A stretch of DNA of 64,000 nucleotides from an uncultured Bacilli bacterium (GTDB taxonomy: Bacteria > Bacillota_I > Bacilli_A > RF39 > UBA660). The position numbers and the translations under genes were made by a program. Shown here piece by piece: positions 35,942 to 58,316 of this stretch; position 1 is the stretch's first letter, and each line of letters opens with the position of its first letter. Below the pieces are notes generated by a model. The model did not search any database and was not told the DNA's origin. It was given only the letters and a program-made list of their open reading frames with translations. The stretch covers positions 7,972-71,971 of the forward strand of contig CAJUTW010000001.1 of the NCBI GenBank assembly GCA_910589335.1, given 5' to 3'.

Positions 35942-35962
35942 GTAAGGGAGTGATAGGTAGAT

Positions 35963-36463
35963 ATGAATAAGGCGATGTTAACAGTTGGAATAATTTTACT
36001 AAGTTTAATATCTTTACTTTTATTAAATGTATTAAGTAATTATTCGACTGGTGGAGAATTAGACTATTACTTAGTTAAAGAGACAACAGATGCAGCAATG
36101 GTTGATGCTATTGATAAAACTTATTTAAGAACATGTGGGCTATATCGTATTGATAAAGAAAAGTTCGTTGAGAGCTTTCTTTATCGATTCGCTGATAGTG
36201 TAGACACAACAAGAGATTATAAAATTGGATTTTATGATATTAATGAAGTACCGCCTAAAGTAAGTGTTAAGGTTGATTCATTAACTGTTCTAAGTTTTAA
36301 AGCAAAAAAAACTGATGCTGAAGGTAATGTAAGTGAAGATACAAGTGCTGCTACAATAACAACAAACTACGATGCAATATTAGAAGAAAAATATATTTCT
36401 GATCCTGCTGTCGAAGAGGGGCTTACAAGTAATAATTCTTACTTGTGTAAGCCACTAAGTTAG
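35963..36463 (+). CDS. Hypothetical N-terminally anchored protein, possibly a pseudopilin-like (TadE/TadG-like) protein
   Basis: N-terminal TM followed by N-Y-S/T, as in the two TadE-like ORFs (LVVNYTKA, FNVNYTKA versus NVLSNYSTG). Confidence 0.3.
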   Translation: MNKAMLTVGIILLSLISLLLLNVLSNYSTGGELDYYLVKETTDAAMVDAIDKTYLRTCGLYRIDKEKFVESFLYRFADSVDTTRDYKIGFYDINEVPPKVSVKVDSLTVLSFKAKKTDAEGNVSEDTSAATITTNYDAILEEKYISDPAVEEGLTSNNSYLCKPLS

Positions 36464-36478
36464 AAAGAGAGGAATAAA

Positions 36479-37288
36479 ATGGGTAATTTAACTACAGGTT
36501 TAAAAAAATTTATGCAAAATAAAAATACTGTAACAGTAGTTGGTGTAATATTAGCTATTATAGTTTTATATGTTGCATATACATGGAGGATTAATAAAGC
36601 TGTTAATCCTCAAGTAGTTCCTTATGCTGCAGAACAAATTAATGCAGGAACACAAATTACAGAAAGTATGATTGCTACTAGAGAAGTTCCACCATCAATG
36701 ATTTCTGGAGATGTTTTAATAAATAAAGGAGATATAATCGATAAATATGCTGCTGCTGATACTGTAATTCCAGAAGGAAGTTTATTTTACAGAAGATCAG
36801 TAGTAGAAAAAGAACAGTTACCAGCAAATATAATTTTGGATTATCCAAAGGGGCATGTTCTTTATAATCTTTCAGTTAGTACAGAAAGTACTTACGGAAA
36901 TTCTGTTTATCCAGGAAATTATATAGATATTTATTTAAAAGCAGTTAATAAAATAGATGAATCAAACCCTGCAGCTTTAACAGCAGATGCTGATAAAATT
37001 ATGTTAGGTAAACTTATGTCTAATATTAAAGTTTTAGCAGTAAAAGATTCAGATGGAAATCCGGTTTTCCAAAATATTGATGAAAATAGAAAACCAGCAA
37101 TGATAGTGTTTGCGGTTCCAGAAGAATATTATATTTTACTTAAAAAAGCAGAATATATGAGAACTTATGATACTTCATTAAATATAGTTCCTACTAATGA
37201 AAGTTTAAAAGATGAACCAGCTGATTTGGAAATTAGTAGTGATCAGTTAAAAGAATGGATTAATTTACATACAGTAATGGATCAATAA
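36479..37288 (+). CDS. cpaB: Flp/Tad pilus assembly protein CpaB/RcpC (SAF domain)
   Basis: N-terminal TM plus a SAF-like segment (ITESMIATREVPPSMISGDVLINKGDI). Confidence 0.65.
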   Translation: MGNLTTGLKKFMQNKNTVTVVGVILAIIVLYVAYTWRINKAVNPQVVPYAAEQINAGTQITESMIATREVPPSMISGDVLINKGDIIDKYAAADTVIPEGSLFYRRSVVEKEQLPANIILDYPKGHVLYNLSVSTESTYGNSVYPGNYIDIYLKAVNKIDESNPAALTADADKIMLGKLMSNIKVLAVKDSDGNPVFQNIDENRKPAMIVFAVPEEYYILLKKAEYMRTYDTSLNIVPTNESLKDEPADLEISSDQLKEWINLHTVMDQ

Positions 37289-37325
37289 AAAAAGAATAAA
37301 GAATAAAAATAAGGGTGTGAGTTAG

Positions 37326-38819
37326 ATGAATGGTAGTATTTTTGATAAATTAGATTTTGGACCTTTTCGTTCACTTTTGGATAATGATGATATTACAGAT
37401 ATATCCTATGATAATAATGGACAAATATGGATACGTTCACTAACTCAAGGATCTTTAAGAGTTGAGGTAGAAGGAGCTACTCCAGATTTTGTAGAAAAGT
37501 TAGCATTTCAATGTTCAAATGTTATGGGAACAACATTTAATAATGCTAAACCATTTCTAGATGCAGAAAGTGCTGAGTTACGTATGAACTTTGTACATGA
37601 GTCAATAGCTACAAATGGAATAGCCCTTGTAATTCGTAAAACTCCGGCCAAGATAAGACTTGAAAAAGAAAAGCTAATTGAAGAGGATTATTTTACACCA
37701 GCAATTCATGATTTTTTAATAAAGTGTGTTGAAGGGCATTGTAATATAATGGTTGCTGGTGAAACTGGTTCTGGTAAGACTGAGTTTGTTAAATATTTAG
37801 CTAGTCATACTAAGACTAACGAAAAAATTATTACTATAGAAGATACTTTGGAACTTCATTTAGATAAGATATTTCCTCAAAGAGATATTGTTGCTATGAA
37901 AACTAATAATGTAGCAAGTTATTCTGATGTTTTAGTTACTTGTATGCGTCAGAATCCTAAATGGATATTATTATCCGAAGTTCGTAGTGCTGAGGCGGTA
38001 TCTGCGGTACGTAACTCAATTTCTTCAGGACATAATATTTTATCTACAATTCATGCCGATAAAGCATCAGCTATTCCATATCGTTTATATTCTTTAATGG
38101 AAACTGATTTGGATGTTCATCAATTTCTTACAACAATTTATAGATATATTCAATTAGGAGTTCATATTAAAGCTTTCTACAGTAAAGAATATGGAAAGTT
38201 TCATCGTGAACTTGATGAAGTATCTGAATTTTATGTTGATGATAATAATGAACCTAAATCAAGAATTATTTATCAAAAGATTTTTGGAAAACCAATTATG
38301 TGTCGACCTAGTGATCATTTAATTGAATATCTTGAAAATCAGAATATAGATGTAAGTGAAATTATAAAAGATTTACCAAAGGATTTACCACTTGTTAAAG
38401 CTGAAGATGAGAATATTACTTCTGATAATAATAATGAGGATGGAGATTCTTCATCTAATTTAGTAGATGATAATAAAGCTGATAATACTAATGATGTTAT
38501 TCCTGATGCTGCTTCTAATCCTATTGTAGCTGATAATTCTTCAAATCAGTCAAATGAGGTAGTTGCTAATAATCAAAATACTGTTTCAACTGATACTCAA
38601 GTAGTTGAACAACCTGTAATTCAGGCAGTAGCACAACCAGAGGTGGTAGAAGTAGTTAATGAACAAAAGAGTATTCCACCTATGCAAGAGGGAACAAATA
38701 ACGTTCAGTTATCATCTATTCCAATTGTTCAATCAGTTATTCCGCAACAAGTAGTTGAACAGCCAATTAATCCAGTTTTAAATAATCAAATTTCAACAAT
38801 AGCAAAATTAGATGAATAG
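37326..38819 (+). CDS. tadA: Tad/Flp pilus ATPase CpaF/TadA (secretion NTPase superfamily) with a 130-aa low-complexity C-terminal extension
   Basis: Walker A GETGSGKT, Walker B/Asp box RQNPKWILLSEVR, His box GHNILSTIHA. Confidence 0.8.
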   Translation: MNGSIFDKLDFGPFRSLLDNDDITDISYDNNGQIWIRSLTQGSLRVEVEGATPDFVEKLAFQCSNVMGTTFNNAKPFLDAESAELRMNFVHESIATNGIALVIRKTPAKIRLEKEKLIEEDYFTPAIHDFLIKCVEGHCNIMVAGETGSGKTEFVKYLASHTKTNEKIITIEDTLELHLDKIFPQRDIVAMKTNNVASYSDVLVTCMRQNPKWILLSEVRSAEAVSAVRNSISSGHNILSTIHADKASAIPYRLYSLMETDLDVHQFLTTIYRYIQLGVHIKAFYSKEYGKFHRELDEVSEFYVDDNNEPKSRIIYQKIFGKPIMCRPSDHLIEYLENQNIDVSEIIKDLPKDLPLVKAEDENITSDNNNEDGDSSSNLVDDNKADNTNDVIPDAASNPIVADNSSNQSNEVVANNQNTVSTDTQVVEQPVIQAVAQPEVVEVVNEQKSIPPMQEGTNNVQLSSIPIVQSVIPQQVVEQPINPVLNNQISTIAKLDE

Positions 38820-38831
38820 GGAGGTGTTAAG

Positions 38832-39734
38832 ATGTATTTTACTGAATTATTAATAATAATAATTGTTGTAGTAGGTATATTTTTATACAGAAATTATAAA
38901 GGAGAAAATGTTGGAAAATATGTAATTAATCAAGTACAAACTGTTTATGATAAATTTGCTCCTTATTCATTTAAAGTTGTTAGAGAAAAAACTAAGCAGT
39001 TAGGACAGGAATATACTCCTAGACAATATGCCATTCAAATATCTTTGTTTGCTGGATTTGCAGCAGTTGTTACATATTTATATTTTTATAATTTAATAAT
39101 AAGTTTAATTTATGCAATTGCCGCTGTTTCTTTTGTTCCATACCTTACATATTTAAGATGTAAAAAAGTATATTCTGAATTTATATTCGAGCAAGTACAA
39201 GTTTATACTTCAAATACAATAATGGAATTTGCAACTACTCAATCTTTTGTTAAAGCATTAGAAGGTGTTAGAGATTCTGGTGTTTTAGAAGATCCAGTGT
39301 TAAGTGATGTTAATCAAATGATAAATATGAGTTATGATAATGGTACGATAGATGAAGCTTTAGAATATATGAGTAGATTATATCCTTATTATATAGTTAA
39401 GAATATGCATCAATTATTTTTACAGATTACTAAAGAAGGTGCACAAAATTCTGCTGATTCCCTAGAAAATATGCAATTAGATATTGATATGCTAGTAGAG
39501 AGTGTTTATCGTGATAGAATCGAGAGAGCTTCATTTCATAAGTCTTTTTTACAATTTGGTATTATGCTTTATTTAATGGTAATGCTTGTGCAATATTTGT
39601 TAGGTAGAGAAACTTATTTAGTTTTATTAGAGCGATGGTATATTCAAATTTTAATGCATGGTGTTTTAATTGTTAATACATATTTTCTCTTAAAAGGGGA
39701 AAAATACTATAATGAGAATGTAGGTGCTGAGTAA
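38832..39734 (+). CDS. tadB: TadB-like platform protein (T2SSF/GspF domain)
   Basis: TM - helical cytoplasmic domain - TM topology, directly after the ATPase gene. Confidence 0.65.
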   Translation: MYFTELLIIIIVVVGIFLYRNYKGENVGKYVINQVQTVYDKFAPYSFKVVREKTKQLGQEYTPRQYAIQISLFAGFAAVVTYLYFYNLIISLIYAIAAVSFVPYLTYLRCKKVYSEFIFEQVQVYTSNTIMEFATTQSFVKALEGVRDSGVLEDPVLSDVNQMINMSYDNGTIDEALEYMSRLYPYYIVKNMHQLFLQITKEGAQNSADSLENMQLDIDMLVESVYRDRIERASFHKSFLQFGIMLYLMVMLVQYLLGRETYLVLLERWYIQILMHGVLIVNTYFLLKGEKYYNENVGAE

Positions 39735-40537
39735 TGGAGATATTAGTAGTAGGTGCAGTTATAATGTTTATCTTAATTTATAATAATACTATAGATAAAG
39801 ATAAATTTTTTGCTGATAATCAAAAATACTTAGAGGCCTTTAAAGAAGATGACTATCAGTTTTTAGTATATGCTAAATATGGTGAAGATGTGGATATAGA
39901 TCAATTATATTCTAAACGAGTAACCAATGCCTTTATTGTATTTCTTGTAATATTAGCGCTTACAATTACTGGTGGTGATTCGGCGGAAATAATTAATTCT
40001 CAATTTTTTCTTAATTTAGTTTTATCTACCGTAATTGCTGTTTTAGTTTTTAAAATGCCTTATATGGAATTAAAAAGATATTATAAGTTACATCTTCATG
40101 AAATAGATGTAATGTTACCATACTATCTAAAAAGTTTAGAGATTTTAATTCAACATTATACTGTTCCAGTTGCAATTGGTAAATCAATAGGAGATGCTCC
40201 TGATATATTTAGACCTGGACTTAGAAGAATGATTGATAGGATAAATTCTGGAGATGCTTCAGTTGATCCATATATGGAATTTGCTAATACATATCCTGTT
40301 AGGGATTCTATGCGTATGATGAGACTTTTGTATCGTTTAGGAATAGGGTCACAAGAGAAAAAACAAGAAAGATTGATGATGTTTTCTAAGACAGTATCAA
40401 GCTTACAGAATAAGGCAAGAGAAACTAAATATAAGGAAAGACTTTCACATATGGAAAGTCAAACAATGGTTATGCTTGTTGTAACTGGTATTGGAGTTAT
40501 GCTTGTAATTTTAATTTCAATGATGATGATGTTTTAA
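39734..40537 (+). CDS. tadC: TadC-like platform protein (T2SSF/GspF domain)
   Basis: Same TM - cytoplasmic domain - TM topology, paired with the TadB-like gene. Start overlaps the upstream stop. Confidence 0.65.
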   Translation: MEILVVGAVIMFILIYNNTIDKDKFFADNQKYLEAFKEDDYQFLVYAKYGEDVDIDQLYSKRVTNAFIVFLVILALTITGGDSAEIINSQFFLNLVLSTVIAVLVFKMPYMELKRYYKLHLHEIDVMLPYYLKSLEILIQHYTVPVAIGKSIGDAPDIFRPGLRRMIDRINSGDASVDPYMEFANTYPVRDSMRMMRLLYRLGIGSQEKKQERLMMFSKTVSSLQNKARETKYKERLSHMESQTMVMLVVTGIGVMLVILISMMMMF

Positions 40538-40547
40538 TTAAAATATG

Positions 40548-40576
40548 TTGTTAAAAATAATTAGATTTGTTATAAT
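40548..40576 (+). promoter_or_regulatory. Strong sigma-A-type promoter (TTGTTA-N17-TGtTATAAT) for the small pilin-like ORF
   Basis: Consensus extended -10, 33 nt upstream of ATG 40610. Confidence 0.55.
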
Positions 40577-40609
40577 TAATTTGTAAAAATAAGAAAGGAT
40601 GGGATAATA

Positions 40610-40759
40610 ATGAAAGCAGCTACAGGAGAATTAAATTTAACAGTAATTACTTTACTTGCTATTGCGGCAGTAATTGCATTTTTCTGGGCAATGTGGCCAA
40701 GTATTTCTGAAACAATTAATGGACAATGGACAAATATAAGTACATATGGAGCTAAATAG
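40610..40759 (+). CDS. Small (49 aa) Flp-type pilin candidate (absent from the ORF track)
   Basis: MKAATG/ELNLTVITLLAIAAVIAFFWAMW: short charged leader, Gly, then a hydrophobic helix. RBS AAGGATGG with an 8-nt spacer. Own consensus promoter. Position between tadC and tadE is typical of flp. Confidence 0.5.
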   Translation: MKAATGELNLTVITLLAIAAVIAFFWAMWPSISETINGQWTNISTYGAK

Positions 40760-40771
40760 GGGTGTTATTAG

Positions 40772-41215
40772 ATGAGAGATGGATTTGGAGGTATTTTAAA
40801 TATAGTTTTTATTGTAATATTTTTACTTATTGTAGAAGGTGTTTTAGGTTTAGTTGTTAATTATACTAAAGCTTTTAAGATGAAAAACAATGTTATTTCA
40901 ATGATAGAACAATATGAAGCTGCAGGTTGTTTTGAAAACTCAGGAAATAGTGCATGTGTTAAAAGAATAATTGATAAAGCTAAAGAAATAGGATACTCTC
41001 CTACCTCTCTTAACTGTCCTAGTGGGTATGATTCAGTTTACGATTTATTTTGTTATAGAGGGGAAATTGTAAAAAATACTGATAATTATACAAGTTCAAA
41101 ACCAACTGTATATAAAGTTGTAACTCAGGTAGATTTAAATTTACCACTTATAAGTAATATTTTAGGATTTAGTATTTTTCAGGTATCAGGAGACACTGAA
41201 GTTGTTGAGTCTTAA
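40772..41215 (+). CDS. TadE-like pseudopilin (paralog 1)
   Basis: MRDGFGGILNIVFIVIFLLIVEGVL TM plus NYTKAFKMKN, the TadE-like N-terminal domain pattern. Tandem paralog. Confidence 0.6.
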   Translation: MRDGFGGILNIVFIVIFLLIVEGVLGLVVNYTKAFKMKNNVISMIEQYEAAGCFENSGNSACVKRIIDKAKEIGYSPTSLNCPSGYDSVYDLFCYRGEIVKNTDNYTSSKPTVYKVVTQVDLNLPLISNILGFSIFQVSGDTEVVES

Positions 41216-41233
41216 TGGTTAGAAGGTGATTTT

Positions 41234-41677
41234 GTGCGTGATGCTTTGGGAGGAACAGTAGTTATTACAATAATTGTTATTTTTATAGTTTTTGTTTCAG
41301 CTTATTTAGCATTTAATGTTAATTATACTAAGGCTTTTAAGATGAAGAATAAAATTATTTCGACTTATGAGGAGTATAATGGTAAATGTGAAACTGATTG
41401 TAAAACAAAAATAAAAGAATATGCTGAAAGTATTGGTTATAAACCTAATCTTAATTGTGGTAGTTATGATGAAGACAGTAATGGATTATATTGTTATAAA
41501 TTAATGGAAGTTAAAAAGAATGCTTGTGATGAAGGATCTAAAAAATATTATAAAATTCAAACAAAAATTGATATAAGAGTTCCAATTGTTGATAGTATTT
41601 TAGGATTACAAGTTTTTGCTATAAGTGGAGATACAAAAGTATTTGAAGATAAATTTTCTTCTGGAAATTGCAAATAG
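41234..41677 (+). CDS. TadE-like pseudopilin (paralog 2)
   Basis: MRDALGGTVVITIIVIFIVFVSAYL plus NYTKAFKMKN. GTG start after AAGGTGA. Confidence 0.6.
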   Translation: MRDALGGTVVITIIVIFIVFVSAYLAFNVNYTKAFKMKNKIISTYEEYNGKCETDCKTKIKEYAESIGYKPNLNCGSYDEDSNGLYCYKLMEVKKNACDEGSKKYYKIQTKIDIRVPIVDSILGLQVFAISGDTKVFEDKFSSGNCK

Positions 41678-41707
41678 TATTTAAAATAAAAAGGATGTTG
41701 ATAAGGA

Positions 41708-42718
41708 ATGAATGTTATTGTAGCTAATACACAACAAAATGAGTTATCTAATTTAGATATTGATATTATAAAAAGTATTTCTGGTGTGTATGAGGCAGCA
41801 GAAATCGTTGAAATGTTTAAAAGTTTTTTTTATAGTAAGATGATTTTAGATGTTACTGCTATTAAACATTATAATGATTTAAAGACTTATGAGTTATTAA
41901 TTCAAGGTTTGGATCCTGAAAAAATAATTTTTTTATTACCTGAAGGAAGTGAACTATGTACTTCAAATTTTTTATCACATCTTATATCAATTGGTATTTA
42001 TAATTTTACAACTAATTTAAATGGTATAAAATTTTTATTAAAAAAGCCTAATACATTAAAAGATGTAGAACATATTAGAAAAATGGCTGGAATGGAAAAC
42101 TCTACAGAAACAGGAGCAAGTGTTGCTACTGTTACTACAAAAGTAGAAAGTGGAACAACTGTCATTGGTGTTAGAAATGTGACAGAACATGCTGGAGCTA
42201 CAACTTTCATATATATGTTAAAAAAAGAGTTAGCAATTGTTTATGGACAAGATAATGTAATTGCTATTGAAATTGATAAAAATGATTTTCAATTATTTAA
42301 TGATAAACATATGGTTTCTTGTAAACAGAGTGAAATTAAAAATATGTTTCAAAAATATAGTAATGCAACAATTATTTTAGTAGATCTTAATGGAAATGTA
42401 GAAGATGCATTCTGTGGAGAAGTTTTATATTTAGTAGAGCCTAGTACTTTAAGACTTAATAAAGTAGTTAGAAGAAATCGAAATTGTTTTAGTAAATTAG
42501 TTGGTAAAAAAGTTATTTTGAATCAAAGCTTACTTTTAAATAATGATGTTTTTGATTTTGAGAGTGAAGCAGGTATTAAAGTTTTTTATAATTTGCCGCC
42601 ACTTGATGAGCGAAAAAGAAATGCTATAATAAATGATTTTTTAACTAAATTAGGTTTATTTAATAAGAGTGTAAAAAACAATTCAGGAAATAAGATATTT
42701 GGATTGTTTAGACGCTAA
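41708..42718 (+). CDS. TadZ/CpaE-like pilus localisation protein with a degenerate nucleotide-binding motif
   Basis: N-terminal receiver-like region. ParA/MinD-like segment VIGVRNVTEHAGATTFIYMLKKELA lacks the canonical GK[ST]. Confidence 0.4.
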   Translation: MNVIVANTQQNELSNLDIDIIKSISGVYEAAEIVEMFKSFFYSKMILDVTAIKHYNDLKTYELLIQGLDPEKIIFLLPEGSELCTSNFLSHLISIGIYNFTTNLNGIKFLLKKPNTLKDVEHIRKMAGMENSTETGASVATVTTKVESGTTVIGVRNVTEHAGATTFIYMLKKELAIVYGQDNVIAIEIDKNDFQLFNDKHMVSCKQSEIKNMFQKYSNATIILVDLNGNVEDAFCGEVLYLVEPSTLRLNKVVRRNRNCFSKLVGKKVILNQSLLLNNDVFDFESEAGIKVFYNLPPLDERKRNAIINDFLTKLGLFNKSVKNNSGNKIFGLFRR

Positions 42719-42722
42719 TAAT

Positions 42723-42751
42723 TTGACAAATAATGATATATAGTGTATTAT
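42723..42751 (+). promoter_or_regulatory. Strong sigma-A-type promoter (TTGACA-N17-TATTAT)
   Basis: Consensus -35, 17-nt spacer, TG-adjacent -10, upstream of ORF 42776. Confidence 0.55.
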
Positions 42752-42775
42752 GTTAGTAGTGAAGGAGAGGTTTAG

Positions 42776-43114
42776 ATGTTAGATTTAGTACAAATTGGAA
42801 CAGATGCGTGTGGAGGATTATTACCTTTAGTAAAAGTAATATATGCAGCAATCAAGTTAGTTATGGTTATAATTCCTATTGCTTTAATTATATATGGAAC
42901 AATAGATTTAGGAAAAGCAGTTATTGCAAGTGATGAAAAAGAAGTTAAATCTGCTCAAAGTAGACTAATTAAACGTATGATTTACGCAGCTCTTATATTC
43001 TTTATTCCAATGTTAGTTGGTGTAGTTATGAATATCGTATCTGCTGGTGAACAAGGAGATACTGAAAGCTGGAATAATTGTTGGCAAGCTGTAACTGGTG
43101 GAGATAGTGAATAG
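42776..43114 (+). CDS. Small Cys-flanked two-TM membrane protein (VirB2/TrbC-like topology), family member 1
   Basis: TDACGG ... TM ... FFIP ... TM ... NCWQAV. Homologous to the N-terminus of the ORF 21918 NlpC/P60 protein and to the ORF 43188 C-terminus. Confidence 0.55.
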   Translation: MLDLVQIGTDACGGLLPLVKVIYAAIKLVMVIIPIALIIYGTIDLGKAVIASDEKEVKSAQSRLIKRMIYAALIFFIPMLVGVVMNIVSAGEQGDTESWNNCWQAVTGGDSE

Positions 43115-43163
43115 TAATAGTAATTATTGCTATTTTTTTTTTATTTTGATATACTTATTATGT

Positions 43164-43172
43164 TATAATGTA
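43164..43172 (+). promoter_or_regulatory. Extended -10 element (TGtTATAAT) after a hairpin/T10 terminator-like sequence at 43115-43160
   Basis: tgttataat precedes the GGAG RBS and ATG 43188. Confidence 0.35.
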
Positions 43173-43187
43173 TGCGGAGTGTGTTTT

Positions 43188-43715
43188 ATGCGAAAAAGAA
43201 TATTAGTATTATTAGTATTAATTATGTCGTTTATGTTAATTATTCCAATAGAAGCTGATGCTCTTCCTAGTAGAGAAATTAATAATAATGAGTTATCTGA
43301 AAATGTTTTTATGTTAACTAAAATAGATAATATGAAGAAGAAAAAGAAAAAAACAGAACCAATAACTGATATTGATGATGTTGATGATTTATTGGATGAT
43401 TATGATCAAGAACAGGATTGTAATGGGTCTAATTCTATCTTTGGAGATCCTGAAGATGAGGATTCTGTAGCATGGCTTTTACAACAGGCTTTAAATTATA
43501 TTAAAGTTATTGGACCAATTTTAGTTGTAATTTTAAGTAGTATAGATTTTGTTTATGTAATAGTTAAGAGTGATGATGAGGCAATGAAAAAAGCTACAAA
43601 GAAATTAACTTATAGAATTATTTTAGCTCTTCTTTTATTCTTTATTCCTACATTAGTTCAAGTAGCATTAGATTTATTTGGAATGGCAACTGATCCTACT
43701 TGTGGTTTACATTAA
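43188..43715 (+). CDS. Secreted-leader two-TM membrane protein (VirB2/TrbC-like topology), family member 2
   Basis: Signal peptide MRKRILVLLVLIMSFMLIIPIEADA, an acidic region, then QDCNG ... TM ... LLFFIPTLV ... TM ... PTCG. Confidence 0.55.
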   Translation: MRKRILVLLVLIMSFMLIIPIEADALPSREINNNELSENVFMLTKIDNMKKKKKKTEPITDIDDVDDLLDDYDQEQDCNGSNSIFGDPEDEDSVAWLLQQALNYIKVIGPILVVILSSIDFVYVIVKSDDEAMKKATKKLTYRIILALLLFFIPTLVQVALDLFGMATDPTCGLH

Positions 43716-43734
43716 ATAAAAAGAGGTGAATTTT

Positions 43735-45891
43735 ATGGGAGATAGTAATTTAGAAGTTTCTAGTGTTACTAATGATATTATTAGAAATTTATTTTCTACA
43801 TTAGATAAACCTGCTTATTGGTTATTAGGCTTAGTTTACCAATTGTTTTTTAATGTTGCTTCTGCTGATTTGTTTAGTAATCAAACAGTAATGAATTTTT
43901 ATAAAAGAATCCAATTGATTATTGGAGTTTTTATGATGTTTCAACTAGCTGTTACTATAATTAGAGGAATAGTTAATCCTGATACTTTTACGGATTCGAA
44001 AAATGGTGCAACTAATTTAATTAAGAGAGTAGCAATTTCTTTAGTTTTAATGACTCTCTTAGTTCCTATAAATATTCCGGGTGCAAAAAACGAATGGGAA
44101 AGACAGCTTAATAATCATGGGTTTTTATTTGGTGGTCTTTATTCACTACAACATAGAGTACTTAGTAATAATACATTAGGTAGACTTATACTTGGAAATG
44201 ATGATTCGGCTGAATCGTTTACTGAAAGTGATTTTAATGATGATGATAGTAGTTTAGCAAAGTCTGCTAGAATTTTTACATCGACGATTCTAAAAGGATT
44301 TTATAGAATAAATTTAATTCCTTATGAAGATCGTGTTCATAAAAAAGGTAGAGATGACGCTACTATAAATGAAAATAGAGTATGTAAAAATATGGATGAT
44401 GCAATACTAAATTCTTATACAAGACTTGATGCAGATCCTGGAGATATCATTGCTTTAGTTACATATGATTGTGAATATGAAGCAGCTGAATCTAATGCGA
44501 TACAAAATGTTATTAGTTTAATTAATAAGAAATGGGCTGGTCAGATGCGATATGGATTTGCTTATATGCCTTTTATATCAGCAATTGTTGCATTTGTATT
44601 TGTATTTATTCTTCTTAATTTTACTGTTGAAGTTGCTGTTCGAGCTGTTAAATTGGCTGTATTAAGATTAATTGCTCCAATACCTATTATTTCATATATG
44701 GATCCTAAAGGAGGAAAAGATTCTGCTTTCGGTTCTTGGGTTAAAACTTTAACGACAACTTATTTAGATTTATTTATAAGATTAGCTACTGTATACTTTG
44801 TGTTATTCTTAATACAAGATATGATAGTTAATGGTATTTATATTAATCAAGGAGAAGGAATTTTAGGGGTACTGTCATTTATCTTAATTTTAATTGGTTT
44901 ATTTGTTTTTGCAAAACAAGCACCTAAGTTTATTAAACAAGTTTTAGGAATAAAAGATGAAGGTGGTAAGTTCTTAAGTGGAATTAGTGATTTAGCTGCT
45001 GCTACTTCTATTGCTGCTGGAACTGTTGGTTCTGCTCTTAATAGTTTTCGTGCTGCTAAAGAAGAAAATGATGCTTTACATGAAGGCAGTGTACTTAATG
45101 GATTTAGAAATTTTGGTTCTGCAATAGCAGGTGCTATTGGTGGTGGAGCAGCTGGTGCTAAAGCCTTTATGGGAAAAGATGCTTCTGCTCAAGCTGTTAG
45201 AGCAGCTATGGATCAAAGAAATGCTATGCGTGCAGCTCATTCAACTGCTACAGGTAGACTTGCAAGTAATGCATATGGTTTGCTTCGAGGTGAATCTTTA
45301 GCAGCTAGAGATCAAGCTATATTAGAAGCTAATAAGGCAGCATCTACATCAATTAAAGCATTTAAAACAACAGCTGTGGAAGAGGCTATGAAAAAAGGAA
45401 GTTACGGAAACGTATCAACTGCTAATGATAGGTTTGGAAGATTAACAGGAATTAACTTTAATTATCGTCAATTGGAAGCTGCGATTAATACAAAGGATAA
45501 TAGTGGTAATTTTGATTATACAGATTCTACTGGAACTGTACATCATTTGAATGCTGCATGGTTTGATTCTTCAGTTATGGCTGATATTGAAGATAGTCAA
45601 ACAGCTAATTATTTAAAAAGTGATTATGATGAACATACTGGTAAATTTGCAAATAATAAACTTAATACTGATTGGCGTAATGCTAAACATGATATGTCAG
45701 AAGCTAAAATAGATTATCGTGGAAATTATCTTGGAGATATTGGAGCTGGTTCAGGAGTTAATATTAATGGTGCAGATTATGCTTATAAAGATATTGGTAA
45801 GAGCATAGGTGTTGCCAATGAAAATGTTGCTAATATGAATACAGATATGAAACATATTATGAATCGTGCTAATAGTCAAAACAAAAAATAG
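43735..45891 (+). CDS. VirB6/TrbL-like polytopic T4SS channel protein (ConG/TcpH-like) with a long Ala/Gly-rich C-terminal extension
   Basis: Periplasmic N-domain followed by at least five TM helices (FISAIVAFVFVFILL, LAVLRLIAPIPII, LATVYFVLFLIQDMIV, ILGVLSFILILIGLFVF). Confidence 0.6.
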   Translation: MGDSNLEVSSVTNDIIRNLFSTLDKPAYWLLGLVYQLFFNVASADLFSNQTVMNFYKRIQLIIGVFMMFQLAVTIIRGIVNPDTFTDSKNGATNLIKRVAISLVLMTLLVPINIPGAKNEWERQLNNHGFLFGGLYSLQHRVLSNNTLGRLILGNDDSAESFTESDFNDDDSSLAKSARIFTSTILKGFYRINLIPYEDRVHKKGRDDATINENRVCKNMDDAILNSYTRLDADPGDIIALVTYDCEYEAAESNAIQNVISLINKKWAGQMRYGFAYMPFISAIVAFVFVFILLNFTVEVAVRAVKLAVLRLIAPIPIISYMDPKGGKDSAFGSWVKTLTTTYLDLFIRLATVYFVLFLIQDMIVNGIYINQGEGILGVLSFILILIGLFVFAKQAPKFIKQVLGIKDEGGKFLSGISDLAAATSIAAGTVGSALNSFRAAKEENDALHEGSVLNGFRNFGSAIAGAIGGGAAGAKAFMGKDASAQAVRAAMDQRNAMRAAHSTATGRLASNAYGLLRGESLAARDQAILEANKAASTSIKAFKTTAVEEAMKKGSYGNVSTANDRFGRLTGINFNYRQLEAAINTKDNSGNFDYTDSTGTVHHLNAAWFDSSVMADIEDSQTANYLKSDYDEHTGKFANNKLNTDWRNAKHDMSEAKIDYRGNYLGDIGAGSGVNINGADYAYKDIGKSIGVANENVANMNTDMKHIMNRANSQNKK

Positions 45892-45914
45892 AATAAAGAG
45901 GAGTGTGAGATATA

Positions 45915-46226
45915 GTGAATTATTTAATTCCTGCTAATACGAAGAAGGGGCAATTAATATTAGGTTTATTTAGACCTTTTGATTTGGGATTGTTTGCAGG
46001 AGGAGTGTTGGTAACTGTAATATTACTAGCATTTCTTCCTTTAAATAATACGGCTGTTACTATTTTAATACTTAGTCCAGCTTTTATTACTGGTTTTTTA
46101 GTTATGCCAGTTCCTTATTATCATAATATGTTAAATATTATAGTCGAGATGTATGAGTTTTTTACGAATCGTCAGACTTATAGATGGAAAGGTTGGTGTT
46201 ATAAAAGTGTCCAAAAAAGGAAATAG
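45915..46226 (+). CDS. VirB3-like/PrgI-family small membrane protein
   Basis: 103 aa with two TM helices, immediately upstream of and overlapping VirB4. GTG start. Confidence 0.5.
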   Translation: MNYLIPANTKKGQLILGLFRPFDLGLFAGGVLVTVILLAFLPLNNTAVTILILSPAFITGFLVMPVPYYHNMLNIIVEMYEFFTNRQTYRWKGWCYKSVQKRK

Positions 46227-46758
46227 TAGTGGTTTTACTGAGGATTGGTTACCAGTTAGAGCCATTCAAAATAATATGATTATTACTCGTGATAATTTTA
46301 AAGTTAGTGGAGTAAAAATTTCTCCGCGAAATATATTTATTTTGGATCCGCAAATGCAAAATAATATGTTAGTTGCACTTAGAAATTTTTATAATACAAT
46401 TGATTATGAGTTTTGGTTAGTAGTTGCTGATAGACCAGTTGATATATCTGTATATATGTCACAGATGCAATTACTACTAAATGATACACAATCTCCTGCT
46501 GTTAGAAAGCTAATTATGCAAGATATACAAAAAGGGGAAACTTTTATTACTAATAATGTTGTTGATACTGAATATTATTTTATGTTTAAGTCAAAAGATC
46601 AAGATTTACTTATGAAGAGAGTTCGTCAAATGATTAATGGACTTGCAACGTGTGGATTGAATGCTTCACTTATTAGTAATTCAGATTTAAGATTAGTACT
46701 TGAAAACTTCCTAAATGGAGGTACTACTACAGAGTTTGGAACGGTGATGCCAGTATGA
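46153..46758 (+). CDS. virB4: VirB4-like ATPase, N-terminal segment (separate frame; true start uncertain, perhaps GTG 46207)
   Basis: Gram-positive VirB4 N-domain pattern (EDWLPVRAIQNNMIITRDNFKVSGVKISPRNIFIL...). Ends in an ATGA overlap with the next ORF. Confidence 0.6.
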   Translation: MSFLRIVRLIDGKVGVIKVSKKGNSSGFTEDWLPVRAIQNNMIITRDNFKVSGVKISPRNIFILDPQMQNNMLVALRNFYNTIDYEFWLVVADRPVDISVYMSQMQLLLNDTQSPAVRKLIMQDIQKGETFITNNVVDTEYYFMFKSKDQDLLMKRVRQMINGLATCGLNASLISNSDLRLVLENFLNGGTTTEFGTVMPV

Positions 46759-48545
46759 GTATAGGTTTAAGAAGTCAATTAGCTCCTAAGGGGTTACATT
46801 TTAATTCAAGTGATTTTATCATAAGTGATAAATATGCAACAATTTTAACAGTTGTTTCTTATCCAAAATATATTATGCCAGGATATTTATCTTCTTTAAC
46901 TAATATGTCAGGAATTAAGGTTGTTGTTAAACATATACCTGTTCCTTTTCAAGAAATGGCTAAAATGTTAAATAAACAAGTTGCTGATTTAAAAGAAAAA
47001 TATCAAACTGAAAGAGATCAAACTGTTCGTGAAAGAATTAGACAGGATGCAGAAAGTTTAGAATATTTTACTTCTATGCTTGCTGGTAGTCAGGCTCGTA
47101 TTTTTGATTTTCAAATGCATATTATGATTACAGCTGATACAAAAGAAGAACTTGAATTAAAGAAACTTAATGTTAGAAATTATTTAGATTCAATGGAGTT
47201 AAAAGCTATAGCTTTACGTTTTGAACAAGAAAAAGTATTAAAATCTATCTTACCTATTTTTCCTGCACAAGATGTTGAACAGAGAATTGGAACACCGATT
47301 CCTTCTGTAACTATTTCAGCAATGTACCCTTTTATTTTTGATAGTATAAAAGATCCAGGACTTTCAACTTTACTTGGAGTTGACTTTTCTGGAGGAGTTA
47401 TTTTATTTAATCAATTTTTATATAAAATACGTAAAGAAAATAATAGAAATAATGCTAATATGATTATTTTAGGTACATCGGGATCTGGAAAATCTACAGC
47501 AGCTAAATTAATGCTTAGAACTCATATTAGAAATGGATGTCAAATTGTAATAATTGATCCTGAAGATGAATTTAGAGAACTTACTCGTACATTTGGTGGA
47601 GATACAGTTGATATTGGAAAGGGTGGAGAATTTGGTTTAATTAATCCACTTGAAATTGTTATTGATGCTGATGAAGAAGAAATAAAACAAGGATTAGGTT
47701 ATACAGTTTTAACTAGAACTTTACAATTTTTAAAAGCATTTATGAAGTATTATGATCCTTCTATAGAAGAAGATGTATTAACAATGTTTTCTGAAATTGT
47801 ACAAGATACTTATAAAAGATTTGGAATAGATTTTAATGCTGATTTTTCAAGATATACATCAGCTGATTATCCTACTTTTAGTGATGTTTATGCAACTATA
47901 AAAGGTAGGCTTATGTCAATGACTGATCAAACACAAGAACGTGATATTATGGAAAGACTTGAATTAAAAGTTAGACCAATTGTTAAAGAATTGAAATTCT
48001 ATTTTGATGGTCATACAACAATTAGAAAAGATAGCGATTTCATGGTTTTTAATATAAAAGAATTAATGAACAGTGACTCAACTGTTAAAAATGCTTTATT
48101 CTTTAATGTATTAAAATATGCTTGGGGTCTTTGTTTAGATTTTAATGTTGATACAGTTTTAATGGTAGATGAGGCGCATGTTTTACTTGGAGATAATAAT
48201 GCATTAGGAGCTGATTTCTTGGCTCAAGTTCAACGTCGTGCTCGTAAGTATAATACAGGTACAATAATTATTACTCAACAACCTAGTGATTTTTCTAATC
48301 AAGCTGTTATAACACAAGGAAAAGCTATTTTTGATAATTCATCATATTATCTTGTTATGGGGCTTAAAAAACAAGCTGTTGAAGATTTATCTTTATTAAT
48401 AGATTTAAATGAAAGTGAAAAAGAAAGTATTAAACGTTATTCTCAAGGAGAGGCTTTATTCGTTTGTGGAAATAGGCGTATGAGAATTAATATTGCAGTT
48501 ACTCAAGAAGAGTTAGACTCTTTTGGAGTAGGTGGAGGTTTTTAG
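46755..48545 (+). CDS. virB4: VirB4-like T4SS ATPase, C-terminal segment (ConE/TcpF/PrgJ-type)
   Basis: Walker A GTSGSGKST, Walker B LMVDEAHVLL, IIITQQPSD motif. Confidence 0.85.
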   Translation: MSIGLRSQLAPKGLHFNSSDFIISDKYATILTVVSYPKYIMPGYLSSLTNMSGIKVVVKHIPVPFQEMAKMLNKQVADLKEKYQTERDQTVRERIRQDAESLEYFTSMLAGSQARIFDFQMHIMITADTKEELELKKLNVRNYLDSMELKAIALRFEQEKVLKSILPIFPAQDVEQRIGTPIPSVTISAMYPFIFDSIKDPGLSTLLGVDFSGGVILFNQFLYKIRKENNRNNANMIILGTSGSGKSTAAKLMLRTHIRNGCQIVIIDPEDEFRELTRTFGGDTVDIGKGGEFGLINPLEIVIDADEEEIKQGLGYTVLTRTLQFLKAFMKYYDPSIEEDVLTMFSEIVQDTYKRFGIDFNADFSRYTSADYPTFSDVYATIKGRLMSMTDQTQERDIMERLELKVRPIVKELKFYFDGHTTIRKDSDFMVFNIKELMNSDSTVKNALFFNVLKYAWGLCLDFNVDTVLMVDEAHVLLGDNNALGADFLAQVQRRARKYNTGTIIITQQPSDFSNQAVITQGKAIFDNSSYYLVMGLKKQAVEDLSLLIDLNESEKESIKRYSQGEALFVCGNRRMRINIAVTQEELDSFGVGGGF

Positions 48546-48574
48546 AAAATAGAAAAGAAGTAAGGTGATGTAGT

Positions 48575-50914
48575 GTGCCATATCAAAGTCGAAGACAAAC
48601 AAGAAAAAAAGAACAACCTGAAAATGGTGTTGAACCTGAGGTATTAAACACATCAGATGTTGATCCTGCATCACAAAAAAAGCAGGAGCGTCAAGAAGCG
48701 ACTAAAAATGCATTAAAAACTGGTCTTAAAGGAGCAGGAGCTTATGTAGGTGGACCTCTTGGTGCTTATGCTGCAGATAAGTTAGCAAATTCTAAGACTG
48801 GACAAAAAGCACTTAATAAAGGTGCACAGACTCTAAATAAGATACCTGGTATCGGAAGAATTACTAATCGAGTTAATAAAACTGGTGCAATTGATGCCAC
48901 TGATAAAGGAATAGATTTATTTTCTAAATTTGGTGGAAAGAATAAAATTTCTAATAAAAATGTAGAAGTAGGAGGACAAGAGAGTAGTCTTCCTTCTTCT
49001 AGTTCAACAGGTAGCGAAGATGATAGTTCTAGTAAGCAAATAGCAGGGCTTCCTACTAAGTCTAAGATGCCATCTTTTTTAGGGGATAAAGATAAAAATA
49101 AGGATAGTGAAGCAAAAGGTACTGCGAAAGTTAATATACAAATTTTTAAAACAGTAATCTTTGTTTTTGGTCCAATAATTGTAATAATTTTATTATTTTA
49201 TATGGTAATTGCAGGAGTTGCTGGTTTATTTTCTGATTATGAGGATGCTTTTGGAATTAGTCAAACAGTAGGGGAAGAAACAGGAGATGTATATTTTCAA
49301 GCATCTAGTGAAGAACAACAGAAATTTTTTGATAGAGTAAATAATGTAAAACTAGAGTATCAAGCTAATGGAAAAATTGTTGATCCATTAAAAATTGTTG
49401 CTGTTTATCATGTTTTATCACTTAATGGAGCAAATTTAAAATATGAAACTATGGATGATGCAGTTATTAGAAAGATTGCTGATGCAATGTTATTTGATGG
49501 AACTTCTTATAGTGAAGATACTTTTAAAGAAAATTTAATTGCTTATATAATTCCAGAGTATTTACCTAATACTTTAGCAGGAGAGAGAGAACAACTTGCC
49601 GATGATATTTTGGATTATGTTTCTAGATATTACAATTTAATTGGAAAAGAAGAAAATTCAAGTGTTTGTGCATCGATTGGTAGTTGTGTTTATGATATTA
49701 AAGGTTTTGCTTTATCTAATAATGGAAATGTTGCTAAGGCAATGCAAATTAAAGATTTAAAGGTGCGTCTTATGGAATGTGGTGGTGGTTATGGTAGTGG
49801 AAGCTATAATACACCAATAGATCAGGATTTAGTTAATTTTGAAGATTATGTAGCAGGAGTTGCTTATGCTGAAGTTGGTCCTGATGCTCATGTTGAAGCT
49901 TTAAAAGCTCAAATGGTTGCAGCAAGAAGTTATGCTTTAGCTCGTCCTACTGCAATGGGAAATGCTTTAGGAAAAAAATTGGAACAAGAGAATGGGGAGT
50001 GGATTTTACAGATTTCTTCTTGTGTTGCTGATCAAGTATTTTGTAATATTAATGAAGGTTGCTCTTATATGGGAGGAGGAGATGGTCAAGGGGGAGTTGT
50101 TAGAAGTGGAATAGTGCCAGGTGCTATAAGAACTAGACCACCTCTTCCAGAAGGACATCCTCTTAGAACAGTTGCTGCTGAGACTCAAGGTGAAGTTTTG
50201 GTTAATCAACAAGGTTATGTTATATCGACAGGATTTTTAGCAACGGAACAAAGAATATTTATGGCTTTGGCTAGTCAAGGTTTAAATTATAAACAAATTT
50301 TATTGCAAGTTTACAATCAAGGTAATCGTAATTATGGAGCTTTTGATATAGCAAAAGGTAGTTGTAATAACGGAAGTTCATCTAATTGTCAATCTGATAA
50401 TAATAATAATAATAATTATGCAAATTGGAAGCAATATGTAGGTCCTTGGATTAATACTCCAATAGGTACTAGTGGTAATACTATAAAAGGTATAGGATGT
50501 TTAGTTACTTCTGTTTCAATGTTAATTGCTAAAAGTGGAGTTCCTACTGTAATAAATAATTTTAATCCAGGTACTTTTGTTGAGTTTTTAAACAATAATG
50601 GTGGATTTTCTGGAGGAAACTTTAATTGGCCTGCTGCTACAGTTGCTGCTCCAACATTTAAATATCAACGCGGTATAGATGTATTAGGATGGTCTAAAAA
50701 GGATAAACTTAATAAAATAAAAGAAATTGTTAACCAACCTGGATTATATGCAGTTGCAGAAGTTAAGGGAGATACTGGTCAACATTGGGTAGCAATTGAT
50801 TCTGTTACTGGAGATACTATTAAAATGATGGATCCTGGAAGTTCTTCATCTGATATGTGGAGTGAATATAATTGGAACAATACTTCTAGAATAGTTTATT
50901 ATAAAGTTGGATAG
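48575..50914 (+). CDS. T4SS-associated multidomain cell-wall hydrolase (VirB1 functional analog): membrane anchor, SpoIID/LytB-like domain, C-terminal papain-like cysteine peptidase (C39_2/CHAP-like)
   Basis: SpoIID motif DYVAGVAYAEVGPDAHVEALKAQMVAARSYAL. Cys-His pair GIGCLVTSVSM ... GQHWVAIDS. TM at about residues 185-210. Confidence 0.65.
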   Translation: MPYQSRRQTRKKEQPENGVEPEVLNTSDVDPASQKKQERQEATKNALKTGLKGAGAYVGGPLGAYAADKLANSKTGQKALNKGAQTLNKIPGIGRITNRVNKTGAIDATDKGIDLFSKFGGKNKISNKNVEVGGQESSLPSSSSTGSEDDSSSKQIAGLPTKSKMPSFLGDKDKNKDSEAKGTAKVNIQIFKTVIFVFGPIIVIILLFYMVIAGVAGLFSDYEDAFGISQTVGEETGDVYFQASSEEQQKFFDRVNNVKLEYQANGKIVDPLKIVAVYHVLSLNGANLKYETMDDAVIRKIADAMLFDGTSYSEDTFKENLIAYIIPEYLPNTLAGEREQLADDILDYVSRYYNLIGKEENSSVCASIGSCVYDIKGFALSNNGNVAKAMQIKDLKVRLMECGGGYGSGSYNTPIDQDLVNFEDYVAGVAYAEVGPDAHVEALKAQMVAARSYALARPTAMGNALGKKLEQENGEWILQISSCVADQVFCNINEGCSYMGGGDGQGGVVRSGIVPGAIRTRPPLPEGHPLRTVAAETQGEVLVNQQGYVISTGFLATEQRIFMALASQGLNYKQILLQVYNQGNRNYGAFDIAKGSCNNGSSSNCQSDNNNNNNYANWKQYVGPWINTPIGTSGNTIKGIGCLVTSVSMLIAKSGVPTVINNFNPGTFVEFLNNNGGFSGGNFNWPAATVAAPTFKYQRGIDVLGWSKKDKLNKIKEIVNQPGLYAVAEVKGDTGQHWVAIDSVTGDTIKMMDPGSSSSDMWSEYNWNNTSRIVYYKVG

Positions 50915-50922
50915 GAGAATTT

Positions 50923-51711
50923 ATGAGAAAGACGAAAACCTATATTAAATTGTTTATTATTTTGTTAGTGTTTTTTATAGTTATGTTTTTAATTTTTGGT
51001 ATTAATAATATAAAACAAAGTAATTATCAGACAACATTATTAATAGGTAATAATACAATATGGAATTATAATAAAAATAAATGGATAAATATTTCTACTA
51101 GAGATTCCATTGAAAAGTTAAATTGGAAAGAATATAACATTTATTTGGACAATAAAGAATTTGGTAAATATTTCTTATGGCATGATGATAAATGGTATGC
51201 TTTTGATAAGAATAAGAATGCTGTAAAACTTGATGGTAATCTGTTGGCTTATAAAGCAAATTTTAAAATGAAATTTTTAGATTTTTCTAAAAAACAAATT
51301 ACAGATAGAACTTATGTAGATTATGTTTTAGAAGAGAATGATTTAAGTTTATCCAGTCAGTTTACAGCTTTTTATAAATTTGATATTGATTTTGATAATG
51401 ATAAAAATTTAGAAGAGTTCTTTATAATAAGTAATGCTTTTCCATTTGATTTTAATCCTGAAAAAATATTTTCGATAGTATTTATGGTTAAAAATAATAA
51501 GGTATATTATTTATATAATGATATTAGTAATAACAGAGAATCATTAAATGGGTGTAAACCTTATTTAAATGGTGTTCTTGATACAAATAATGATAAAACC
51601 TACGAAATAATATTAAGTTGTGCAAGATATAGTGTTTCAGAATCAATCGATATGTTATATAAATTTGATAAAGAAAAAGATGCTTTTAAAATAGTAATTT
51701 CTAATCAATAA
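50923..51711 (+). CDS. Hypothetical N-terminally anchored protein, possibly the VirB8-like scaffold by position
   Basis: Single N-terminal TM. Sits between the hydrolase and the coupling protein. Confidence 0.3.
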   Translation: MRKTKTYIKLFIILLVFFIVMFLIFGINNIKQSNYQTTLLIGNNTIWNYNKNKWINISTRDSIEKLNWKEYNIYLDNKEFGKYFLWHDDKWYAFDKNKNAVKLDGNLLAYKANFKMKFLDFSKKQITDRTYVDYVLEENDLSLSSQFTAFYKFDIDFDNDKNLEEFFIISNAFPFDFNPEKIFSIVFMVKNNKVYYLYNDISNNRESLNGCKPYLNGVLDTNNDKTYEIILSCARYSVSESIDMLYKFDKEKDAFKIVISNQ

Positions 51712-51767
51712 TTAATGACAGTTTTAAAAAGTTACGTTATAATATAGGGAGAGGAGGAAGTAGTGGT

Positions 51768-58252: not shown

Positions 58253-58316
58253 ATTAAGTCTTTTTAATTTAGTATAAAATACTTATTTTTGTTTAAAATA
58301 ATTTTAGGTGATAAAT

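Follow-up and report, generated by a model that had tools for sequence, protein, structure and literature searches.

Two T4SS-cluster proteins and an NlpC/P60 hydrolase share a cysteine-flanked hairpin of family PF18895 in an uncultured Bacilli bacterium

Results

Three proteins with one hairpin module

We analysed a stretch of 64,000 nucleotides from an uncultured Bacilli bacterium of the GTDB lineage RF39 (assembly GCA_910589335.1, contig CAJUTW010000001.1, positions 7,972 to 71,971 of the forward strand), called the window below, in which three genes of the + strand encode proteins with a common module of about 100 amino acids (aa): two transmembrane (TM) helices joined by a basic loop and flanked by cysteines. 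Protein A (open reading frame (ORF) 42776, 42776..43114, 112 aa) is leaderless and consists of C12, TM1, the basic loop, TM2 and C102-W. Protein B (ORF 43188, 43188..43715, 175 aa) starts with a Sec-type signal peptide (aa 1-25) and a variable linker of lysines and acidic residues, followed by the hairpin (aa 70-175), where C78 and C172 are the flanking cysteines and the second of them is followed by the terminal G-L-H; the alignment of homologues supports the ATG at 43188 as its start. In protein C (ORF 21918, 21918..22787, 289 aa) the hairpin comes first (aa 1-111, with C9, C16, C17 and C101-W), and the remainder is a disordered linker and an NlpC/P60 endopeptidase domain (aa 177-283). The initial annotation had described one hairpin pattern in these three ORFs, two copies lying in a type IV secretion system (T4SS) module and one being fused to an NlpC/P60 hydrolase about 20 kb upstream, and the comparisons reported here bear out both statements. 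Among its motif strings, FFIP is exact in all three proteins, while D-C-x-G is literal in B only (QDCNG), the counterparts being DACGG in A and LDCSE...GTCC in C; after TM2 one finds C-W in A and C, and C-G in B.

In pairwise BLASTP with compositional adjustment, A and B align with E 7e-13 (36% identity over 67 aa), A and C with 6e-10, and B and C with 6e-9. One family hidden Markov model (HMM) per protein was built from database homologues, the window sequences being left out, and searched against all six-frame ORFs of 40 aa or more (347). The HMM of A matches B (2.5e-12) and C (1e-10), that of B matches A (6.7e-15) and C (3.9e-11), and that of C matches A (5.4e-15) and B (9.6e-11); at E<1 the 347 ORFs give no other match except a marginal one between the HMM of C and the N-terminus of a VirB6-like protein (0.0077). 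The window holds many other membrane proteins, yet the HMMs single out A, B and C, and a joint module profile finds exactly three copies. The invariant non-hydrophobic positions of the module are two prolines, the cysteine and the charged loop, and this loop is nearly invariant among the homologues of A (779 of them, at about 70-90% identity). Because the composition-adjusted alignments and the reciprocal HMM matches are specific, we take the similarity as homology and not as a shared TM composition, and there is hardly any room for doubt, as far as sequences can tell, that the three modules are homologous and belong to the Pfam family PF18895. A compositional artefact, which we had considered, was rejected on the adjusted BLASTP, the window-free HMMs and the three-copy count.

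The AlphaFold2 (AF2) model of A has helices at 16-51, 54-91 and 96-108 (predicted local distance difference test score, pLDDT, 77), in other words two long helices and a short third one, and the model of C contains an equivalent hairpin.

One can also notice that the N-terminus of A (42779-42820, LDLVQIGTDACGGL) resembles the C-terminus of B (43668-43709, LDLFGMATDPTCGL), 7 of 14 residues being identical. This likeness may be the trace of an ancestral tandem hairpin, or may be a shared recognition motif around the cysteines.

A large family already present in Pfam

PF18895, "Type IV secretion system pilin" (T4SS_pilin), is matched over the hairpin by all three proteins, with 27.2 bits for B, which passes the gathering score of 26.6, 21.3 for A and 22.1 for C; in the precomputed annotation, PF18895 is also assigned to many proteins closely homologous to A, B or C. 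At E<=1 in Pfam, none of the three matches PF04956 (TrbC/VirB2), PF12648 (TcpE) or a holin or immunity family, and in PHROGs the module gives no holin or immunity match. The module thus belongs to a large family that Pfam already lists, and is not a new one.

A module profile made from 46 trimmed A-, B- and C-type sequences was searched against 1.84 billion cluster representatives and matched 10,334 of them at E<=1e-3 (5,284 at E<=1e-10). From these we retained the 142 best new ones, each standing for one cluster at 50% identity; they are kin to each other, so that counts made on them are not phylogenetically independent. Thirty are short like A, 53 have a C-terminal module like B and 57 an N-terminal module like C. 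In the B-like proteins the module is preceded by a signal peptide and by an extension, about 450 aa long at most, in which Pfam finds no domain. Among the 51 C-like proteins scanned, 28 carry NlpC/P60, four CHAP, two Amidase_5, one M23 and two other cysteine-peptidase domains; PF18895 itself is matched by 32 of these 51 N-terminal-module relatives. The hairpin of C belongs to a subtype C...GxCC...CW, the CC pair being present in 54 of the 57 N-terminal modules.

A separate observation concerns the end of the B-type proteins, which terminate in C-G-[IL]-x (43662-43715 in the window; relatives P0373-P0501). In 44 of the 142 representatives, exactly three residues follow the conserved C-terminal cysteine, and this fixed distance in the B type could be a processing or recognition signal.

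Paired cysteines and the likely topology

The flanking cysteines are conserved at 100% (C12) and 99% (C102) in A, at 99% (C78) and 98% (C172) in B, and at 99-100% in C (C9, C16, C17 and C101, besides the catalytic C197). In the 142 representatives, both flanks have a cysteine in 132 cases and the flank cysteines add up to an even number in 134, the pattern being 1+1 in 71 proteins and 3+1 in 54. Four proteins have lost the C-terminal cysteine, and in these the N flank has two or four cysteines instead; among the eight odd cases, three look truncated. Even totals are also seen in the cluster proteins which have a predicted signal peptide or membrane segment (32, 4, 6, 2 and 2).

In clear agreement with the positive-inside rule, the mean number of lysines plus arginines in the 142 relatives is 4.35 for the loop, but 0.70 and 1.06 for the N and C flanks respectively. 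The NlpC/P60 domain of C, for its part, has to work outside the cell. Taken together, the charge of the loop and this extracellular hydrolase point to a hairpin with both its N- and its C-terminus outside (N-out/C-out), which would place the conserved cysteines on the extracytoplasmic side. Since these cysteines are paired, even in number and apparently outward-facing, a disulfide between the outer N and C flanks is probable. The initial annotation had considered that such an outer pair could form a disulfide, a proposal that conservation, parity and covariation now support at the level of sequence. It had also likened the topology, a leader or signal followed by a two-TM hairpin, to that of VirB2/TrbC pilins; the predicted hairpin with its basic loop and two outward ends agrees with this comparison, and the leader does not, being found in B and in neither A nor C. 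Solved conjugative pili have both pilin termini on the outside and the basic loop on the side of the lumen. The fusions found in the hairpin family are all at a terminus and none is in the loop, which fits because the termini face outward in those pili.

Promoters and a terminator around the genes of A and B

A promoter-like site TTGACA-17-TATTAT precedes the gene of A (42723..42751, + strand), with 11 of the 12 consensus positions, and is followed by the ribosome-binding site GAAGGAGAGG. Its TTGACA is near-invariant in divergent loci (at least 90% conserved in a 10-locus alignment). The promoter-like region of B (43127..43169, + strand) comprises TTGCTA-17-TATACT and then an extended -10 element, TGTTATAAT. 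The strict pattern TTTTGATATACTTATTATGxTATAAT is kept in 15 of the closest sources, with a looser form in more distant ones, and the block TTGCTA-T10-..TGATATACTTATTATGxTATAAT that contains the B sites is conserved at the nucleotide level while adjacent codons drift. Promoter-like matches as a class are not enriched here, with 38 against 35 expected from shuffles; the support for both promoters comes from the conservation of the sites and not from the consensus match per se.

Between the two genes, a hairpin followed by T10 resembles an intrinsic terminator (43109..43142, + strand; arms 43109-43119 and 43125-43135, T10 at 43133-43142). Its fold energy is -9.2 kcal/mol (z -2.67); our terminator scan missed it because it has a single G-C pair. 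The hairpin AATAGCAA..TTGCTATT with its T-run is found 3' of the gene of A in 78 of 81 related loci, and TTGCTATTTTTTTTTT of this region is invariant in six aligned loci. The separate promoters and the intervening terminator of the initial annotation are therefore both backed by conservation. A promoter, a small gene, a terminator and a new promoter for the machinery make up the layout expected of a subunit which is needed in large excess.

The terminator is conserved in sequence as well as in structure, in the form of a palindrome ATAGCAA..TTGCTAT (43109-43155), and its 3' arm is at the same time the TTGCTA -35-like hexamer of the B promoter. This palindrome could also be an operator for a regulator.

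The gene cluster around A and B

The gene of B is followed by that of a VirB6/TrbL-like polytopic membrane protein (43726..45891, + strand; PF19597 TrbL_4, 2.5e-8), which also matches weakly Mbov_0396 and pLS20_p028. Next on the same strand (45915..48545) come a 103-aa ORF, ORF 45915, and what appears from the sequence to be a VirB4 split into two ORFs: ORF 46153-46758 (201 aa) matches positions 81-276 of the NF045975 Mbov_0397 VirB4 model (6e-17), and its homologues match the TraC-like PF26593, while ORF 46755-48545 (596 aa) is the VirB4 ATPase (P-loop_TraG, AAA_10, DUF87). ORF 46153 overlaps both of its neighbours, namely the end of ORF 45915 and, over 4 bases, the start of the ATPase ORF 46755. 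The cluster continues (48575..54119, + strand) with a wall hydrolase of 779 aa with a SpoIID domain (PF08486, 1e-10), a 262-aa ORF and a VirD4-type coupling protein (PF02534, 7e-57).

Upstream of A lies another half-cluster (32290..42718, + strand), with a sortase, a 950-aa protein, DUF5411, a CpaB-like protein, a T2SSE ATPase of the Tad type, two TadB/C-like ORFs, a 49-aa ORF (40610-40759), two Cys-rich paralogues of 147 aa (40772 and 41234) and a 336-aa ORF.

The gene of C and its neighbourhood

The gene of C is located 5' of the cluster, about 10 kb before its first gene, the sortase, and about 20 kb before A. Its catalytic domain matches PF00877 (NlpC/P60) with 1.3e-17, and C197, H244 and H257 are invariant in 63 sequences. 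By sequence this domain resembles generic DL-endopeptidases; in the PDB it matches the hydrolases of Tn916-like conjugative transposons (CTn) at about 1e-6 to 1e-7, and also MepS and CwlO. Full-length C has 418 homologues at E<=1e-3, with 51-98% identity among the 120 matches listed, many of which carry both the hairpin and NlpC/P60. The order IreB-RuvX-DUF1292-MltG-O-methyltransferase-C-(protein of about 250 aa)-U32-U32-HD-GreA is conserved, and C was judged to be on one contig with A or B in at least seven other assemblies. The gene of C is thus part of the chromosomal core and sits among cell-wall and housekeeping genes. Because this copy is in such a conserved neighbourhood, the role of the module may be wider than the word "pilin" implies.

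In distant relatives, a 224-aa gene with PF07963 (prepilin N-methylation) is found just 3' of C and its partner (L003, 9728-10402; L004, 9739-10413). This insertion ties the neighbourhood of C to pilus-type genes.

Distribution and inheritance of the cluster

With the A family as the only query and one genome per species, relatives of A were found in 135 species genomes. All 135 are metagenome-assembled genomes labelled uncultured Bacilli, Mollicutes, Tenericutes or Erysipelotrichaceae, or else Candidatus Faecimonas, Candidatus Onthousia or Clostridium sp. CAG:417. Candidatus Faecimonas and Candidatus Onthousia are Bacilli incertae sedis in NCBI, and we take these two genera to be part of the GTDB order RF39, whose genomes are reported to be reduced.

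The whole cluster from the sortase to VirD4, Tad-like and T4SS genes together, is collinear in the 80 of 80 species loci examined, with identities of 79-97% for VirB4, 44-90% for A and 33-66% for B. The downstream flank was compared at one informative locus, L096, which came from a metagenome scan with a DUF6273 neighbour and whose contig also encodes proteins homologous to B and C. There, the cluster has the same genes on its downstream side, and the upstream neighbours too are common to relatives; on this contig VirB4 is 97.7% identical, against 86% for RmuC, 84% for the class I W/Y tRNA synthetase of ORF 60123 (PF00579) and 81% for DedA. Scanning the cluster and its flanks with Pfam and NCBIfam gave no relaxase, integrase or DDE recombinase (a novel relaxase among the unannotated ORFs being possible), and the window has no tRNA gene. 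Hence, the marks of an integrative and conjugative element (ICE), namely an integrase or DDE recombinase, a relaxase, an att/tRNA boundary and a variable insertion site, were not found. As the cluster is collinear, has conserved flanks and shows neither relaxase nor integrase nor tRNA, it looks, from these sequence comparisons, like a vertically inherited chromosomal apparatus and not a recent ICE. A tblastn search of 72,556 plasmids with A, the C module and two divergent relatives gave no match, though the low-complexity filter of BLAST may hide TM proteins.

Discussion

A pilin-like hairpin probably closed by a disulfide

On balance we favour, as the probable explanation, that A and B are disulfide-closed pilin-like proteins working with the T4SS, and that C is a hydrolase held by the same hairpin. 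The long hairpin would insert N-out/C-out, its basic tip pointing toward the cytoplasm, or toward the lumen if the subunits polymerise. One disulfide in A and B (1+1 cysteines) and two in C (3+1 cysteines) would tie the N- and C-terminal ends together. A, which is the most conserved, has no leader and has its own conserved promoter and terminator, would be the abundant core subunit, while B would be a Sec-exported variant displaying outward its variable charged N-terminal extension. A and B would feed the machine of VirB6-like protein, split VirB4 and VirD4 encoded directly 3'. In C, the hairpin of the C...GxCC...CW subtype would hold the NlpC/P60 endopeptidase at the outer face of the membrane, either as a plain anchor or by docking the enzyme into a pilin/VirB6 assembly. 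Polymerisation or the lining of a channel, the stoichiometry of the subunits and the link between C and the T4SS are all parts of this picture that we infer; for polymerisation or channel lining, the one indirect hint is the arrangement of promoter, gene and terminator at A.

The even number of flank cysteines suggests a simple structural idea, in which a disulfide replaces the cyclisation of pilins. Cyclisation is required for pilus biogenesis in the case of TrhA (PMC12037004), and a head-to-tail cyclisation is also known for TrbC (PMC13434634). The termini of TrhA and TrbC are joined by a peptide bond, which stabilises these pilins; the disulfide would do likewise here, as a redox counterpart.

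Several observations weigh against this explanation. A and C, as said, fall just under the gathering score of PF18895, and they have no signal peptide or leader of the kind typical of VirB2. When the module profiles A1 and A2 were aligned by hhalign with eight annotated VirB2/TrbC proteins, the probabilities were 0.1% and 1.0% (a VirB2 sequence of Agrobacterium tumefaciens, 99% identical to annotated virB2 genes, served as a probe only, and the eight annotated genes were the ones aligned), and fold searches for a likeness to solved conjugative pilins were non-specific. The confidence of the AF2 models of A and C is lowest precisely at the Cys flanks, no thiol-disulfide oxidoreductase (CxxC) was found among the cluster-encoded proteins, and the host is presumably an anaerobe. 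Finally, C does not lie within the T4SS genes, A and B being the only two of the three that are encoded together with a T4SS; the hairpin may be a general anchor and not a polymerising pilin, C being some 20 kb away among housekeeping genes. Since the comparisons with VirB2 were negative in sequence and non-specific in fold, we infer the pilin function rather than read it off from a known pilin. Homology to classical VirB2, which had been a candidate, was rejected on the absence of a PF04956 match at E<=1 and on hhalign probabilities of at most 1%.

Other explanations

The alternative that survives best takes the hairpin for a generic two-helix anchor or docking domain, which positions extracellular parts (hydrolase domains in the C type, N-terminal extensions in the B type) at the membrane or on the VirB6-like platform and never polymerises, A being then a small scaffold or assembly factor. 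Such a role would suit the presence of C in the housekeeping neighbourhood of mltG, the recurring fusions to NlpC/P60, CHAP, Amidase_5 and M23, the long B-type extensions (about 450 aa at most) and the absence of a sequence tie or specific fold tie to VirB2, and it would agree with the statement of reviews that Gram-positive T4SSs are generally without pili (PMC12857230). It does not explain that A, with no domain attached, is nevertheless the most conserved and has the promoter-gene-terminator layout of a high-copy structural subunit, nor that its near-invariant loop suggests a specific interaction surface; moreover, PF18895 has been associated with T4SS pilin arrays (PMC12102498). We regard this anchor as possible, at perhaps one chance in a few.

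At the other extreme, one may speculate, with some hesitation, that the disulfide-closed pilins go much further: the T4SS would build a filament or conduit of VirB2-like subunits "cyclised" by disulfides, with A as the major subunit, B as a minor one decorated on its outer side, and C-type proteins as modular pilins bringing a peptidoglycan-cutting enzyme into this structure or next to it, and the cluster would be the core, vertically inherited organ of a partner-dependent lifestyle. This bolder version seems to us rather unlikely.

It is improbable that A and B are VirB3-like small membrane subunits, counterparts of TcpD/TcpE, PrgI or ConC. They are indeed small two-TM proteins encoded 5' of VirB4, as are TcpD and TcpE (PMC12857230), and the initial annotation had itself proposed a comparison with the TcpD/TcpE folds. 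However, they match neither PF12648 nor any VirB3 family at E<=1, the slot beside VirB4 is taken by ORF 45915 (103 aa) and ORF 46153, and the VirB6-like gene separates A and B from VirB4.

That the likeness is compositional, or that the module is a holin- or bacteriocin-immunity-type protein unrelated to secretion, as the short hydrophobic two-TM proteins, the loose resemblance of C (hairpin plus wall hydrolase) to holin-lysin pairs and the matches of its catalytic domain to phage tail-lysin PHROGs might suggest, is very hard to believe given the composition-adjusted E values of 7e-13 to 6e-9, the specific reciprocal HMMs, the invariant proline, cysteine and charged loop positions, the lack of any Pfam or PHROGs match of the module to holin or immunity families and the fact that both contexts are conserved non-phage chromosomal loci. 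The initial annotation had itself named compositional bias and an unrelated family of the holin or immunity kind as outcomes that would speak against its reading; both were looked for, and neither was found.

Relation to known systems

The closest parallel to the disulfide-closed pilin-like proteins proposed here is in Patescibacteria, where arrays of VirB2-like proteins accompany chromosomal, mostly relaxase-less T4SSs (PMC12102498; PMC12857230). The two systems have in common the family PF18895, tandem paralogues near virB4/virB6, a monoderm T4SS with a chromosomal location, a relaxase that is not detected, an uncultured host and, as is reported for RF39, a reduced genome. They differ in that the host here belongs to the Bacilli of the Bacillota and has wall-metabolism genes, in that there are just two copies here, of unlike architectures (a leaderless A, and a B with signal peptide and extension), and in that the T4SS and a Tad-like module here make up a single collinear cluster. 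The literature searched does not mention paired flank cysteines or hydrolase fusions for Patescibacteria.

As judged from its sequence, the hairpin is like VirB2, TrbC, TraA and TrhA in its size, in its predicted helical hairpin with both ends out and in its positive loop, and its genes head a block with VirB6-like and VirB4 genes just as those pilin genes head the virB3/virB4/virB6 block. It differs from VirB2/TrbC by the absence of sequence or profile similarity, by the want of a long leader in A and C, by the monoderm host and by its covalent closure, which would be a disulfide in the place of a peptide bond.

The Mycoplasma ICE has the same order of a pilin-like protein (Mbov_0395, NF045849), a TM protein (Mbov_0396, NF045889) and VirB4 (Mbov_0397, NF045975). 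The matches of A and B to NF045849 are weak (14-15 bits for a cut-off of 40). In contrast to that ICE, the present cluster has a split VirB4, a wall hydrolase and a Tad-like module, and does not lie on a mobile element.

C can be compared with the VirB1-like hydrolases of Gram-positive systems (CwlT, PrgK, TraG of pIP501 and the Tn916-like Orf14/CTn), which likewise consist of an N-terminal membrane segment and NlpC/P60; C differs in lying outside the T4SS cluster, which has its own SpoIID-domain hydrolase, and in having an anchor of the pilin family. It can also be compared with the modular type IV pilins, PilB of Streptococcus sanguinis being an example (PMC8179133), with which it shares the concept of a functional domain grafted on a pilin module, for display on the filament. 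PilB is, however, of the type IV pilin superfamily and not VirB2-like, and a place for C in a filament would be conjectural.

Meaning of the cluster

A T4SS headed by PF18895 pilin-like genes is present in at least 80 species-level genomes, and probably in at least 135, of a Bacillota lineage which is common in the guts of animals and humans. The machine is better conserved than the housekeeping genes near it, and our scans gave no relaxase. These findings suggest that a T4SS has here been co-opted, for a second and independent time, as a lineage-defining apparatus. If the filament or conduit described above were real, the cluster might serve for the exchange of DNA or nutrients between neighbouring cells, a parallel to Patescibacteria, in which the T4SS and pilin array are essential. 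It would then also contradict the statement of a 2025 review that Gram-positive T4SSs have no VirB2-type pilins, Patescibacteria being the sole exception (PMC12857230). The recurring fusion of one hairpin subtype to wall hydrolases shows a pilin-family fold reused as an enzyme carrier and may explain how such machines get through a thick wall.

We found no published description of a Tad-like plus T4SS cluster in RF39-like Bacilli in the literature searched. By the same measure, the occurrence of PF18895 in Bacillota, the even flank cysteines, the hydrolase fusions (one of them at a core locus) and the collinear Tad-like and T4SS cluster, in which no relaxase was detected, appear to be new.

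Other observations in the window

The 49-aa ORF of the upstream half-cluster (MKAATGELNLTVITLLAIAAVIAFFW...) may be a Flp-like pilin candidate, and the two 147-aa paralogues (40772 and 41234) have TadE-like hydrophobic N-termini; none of the three has an above-threshold match in Pfam or NCBIfam. The secreted 950-aa protein (33089-35941), which contains 32 cysteines and is encoded directly 3' of the sortase, has no LPXTG-type C-terminus and no match in Pfam or NCBIfam.

Downstream of the cluster, the genes of Ku and of an ATP-dependent DNA ligase (58308-59948) form a non-homologous end joining pair, which is missing from the otherwise syntenic relative L096.

The window is a strongly skewed chromosomal segment with 24% G+C. 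Within it, the cluster reaches 27-32% (34000-54000), against 20-25% for its flanks, and this raised G+C may reflect the constraint on highly conserved proteins and not a foreign origin.

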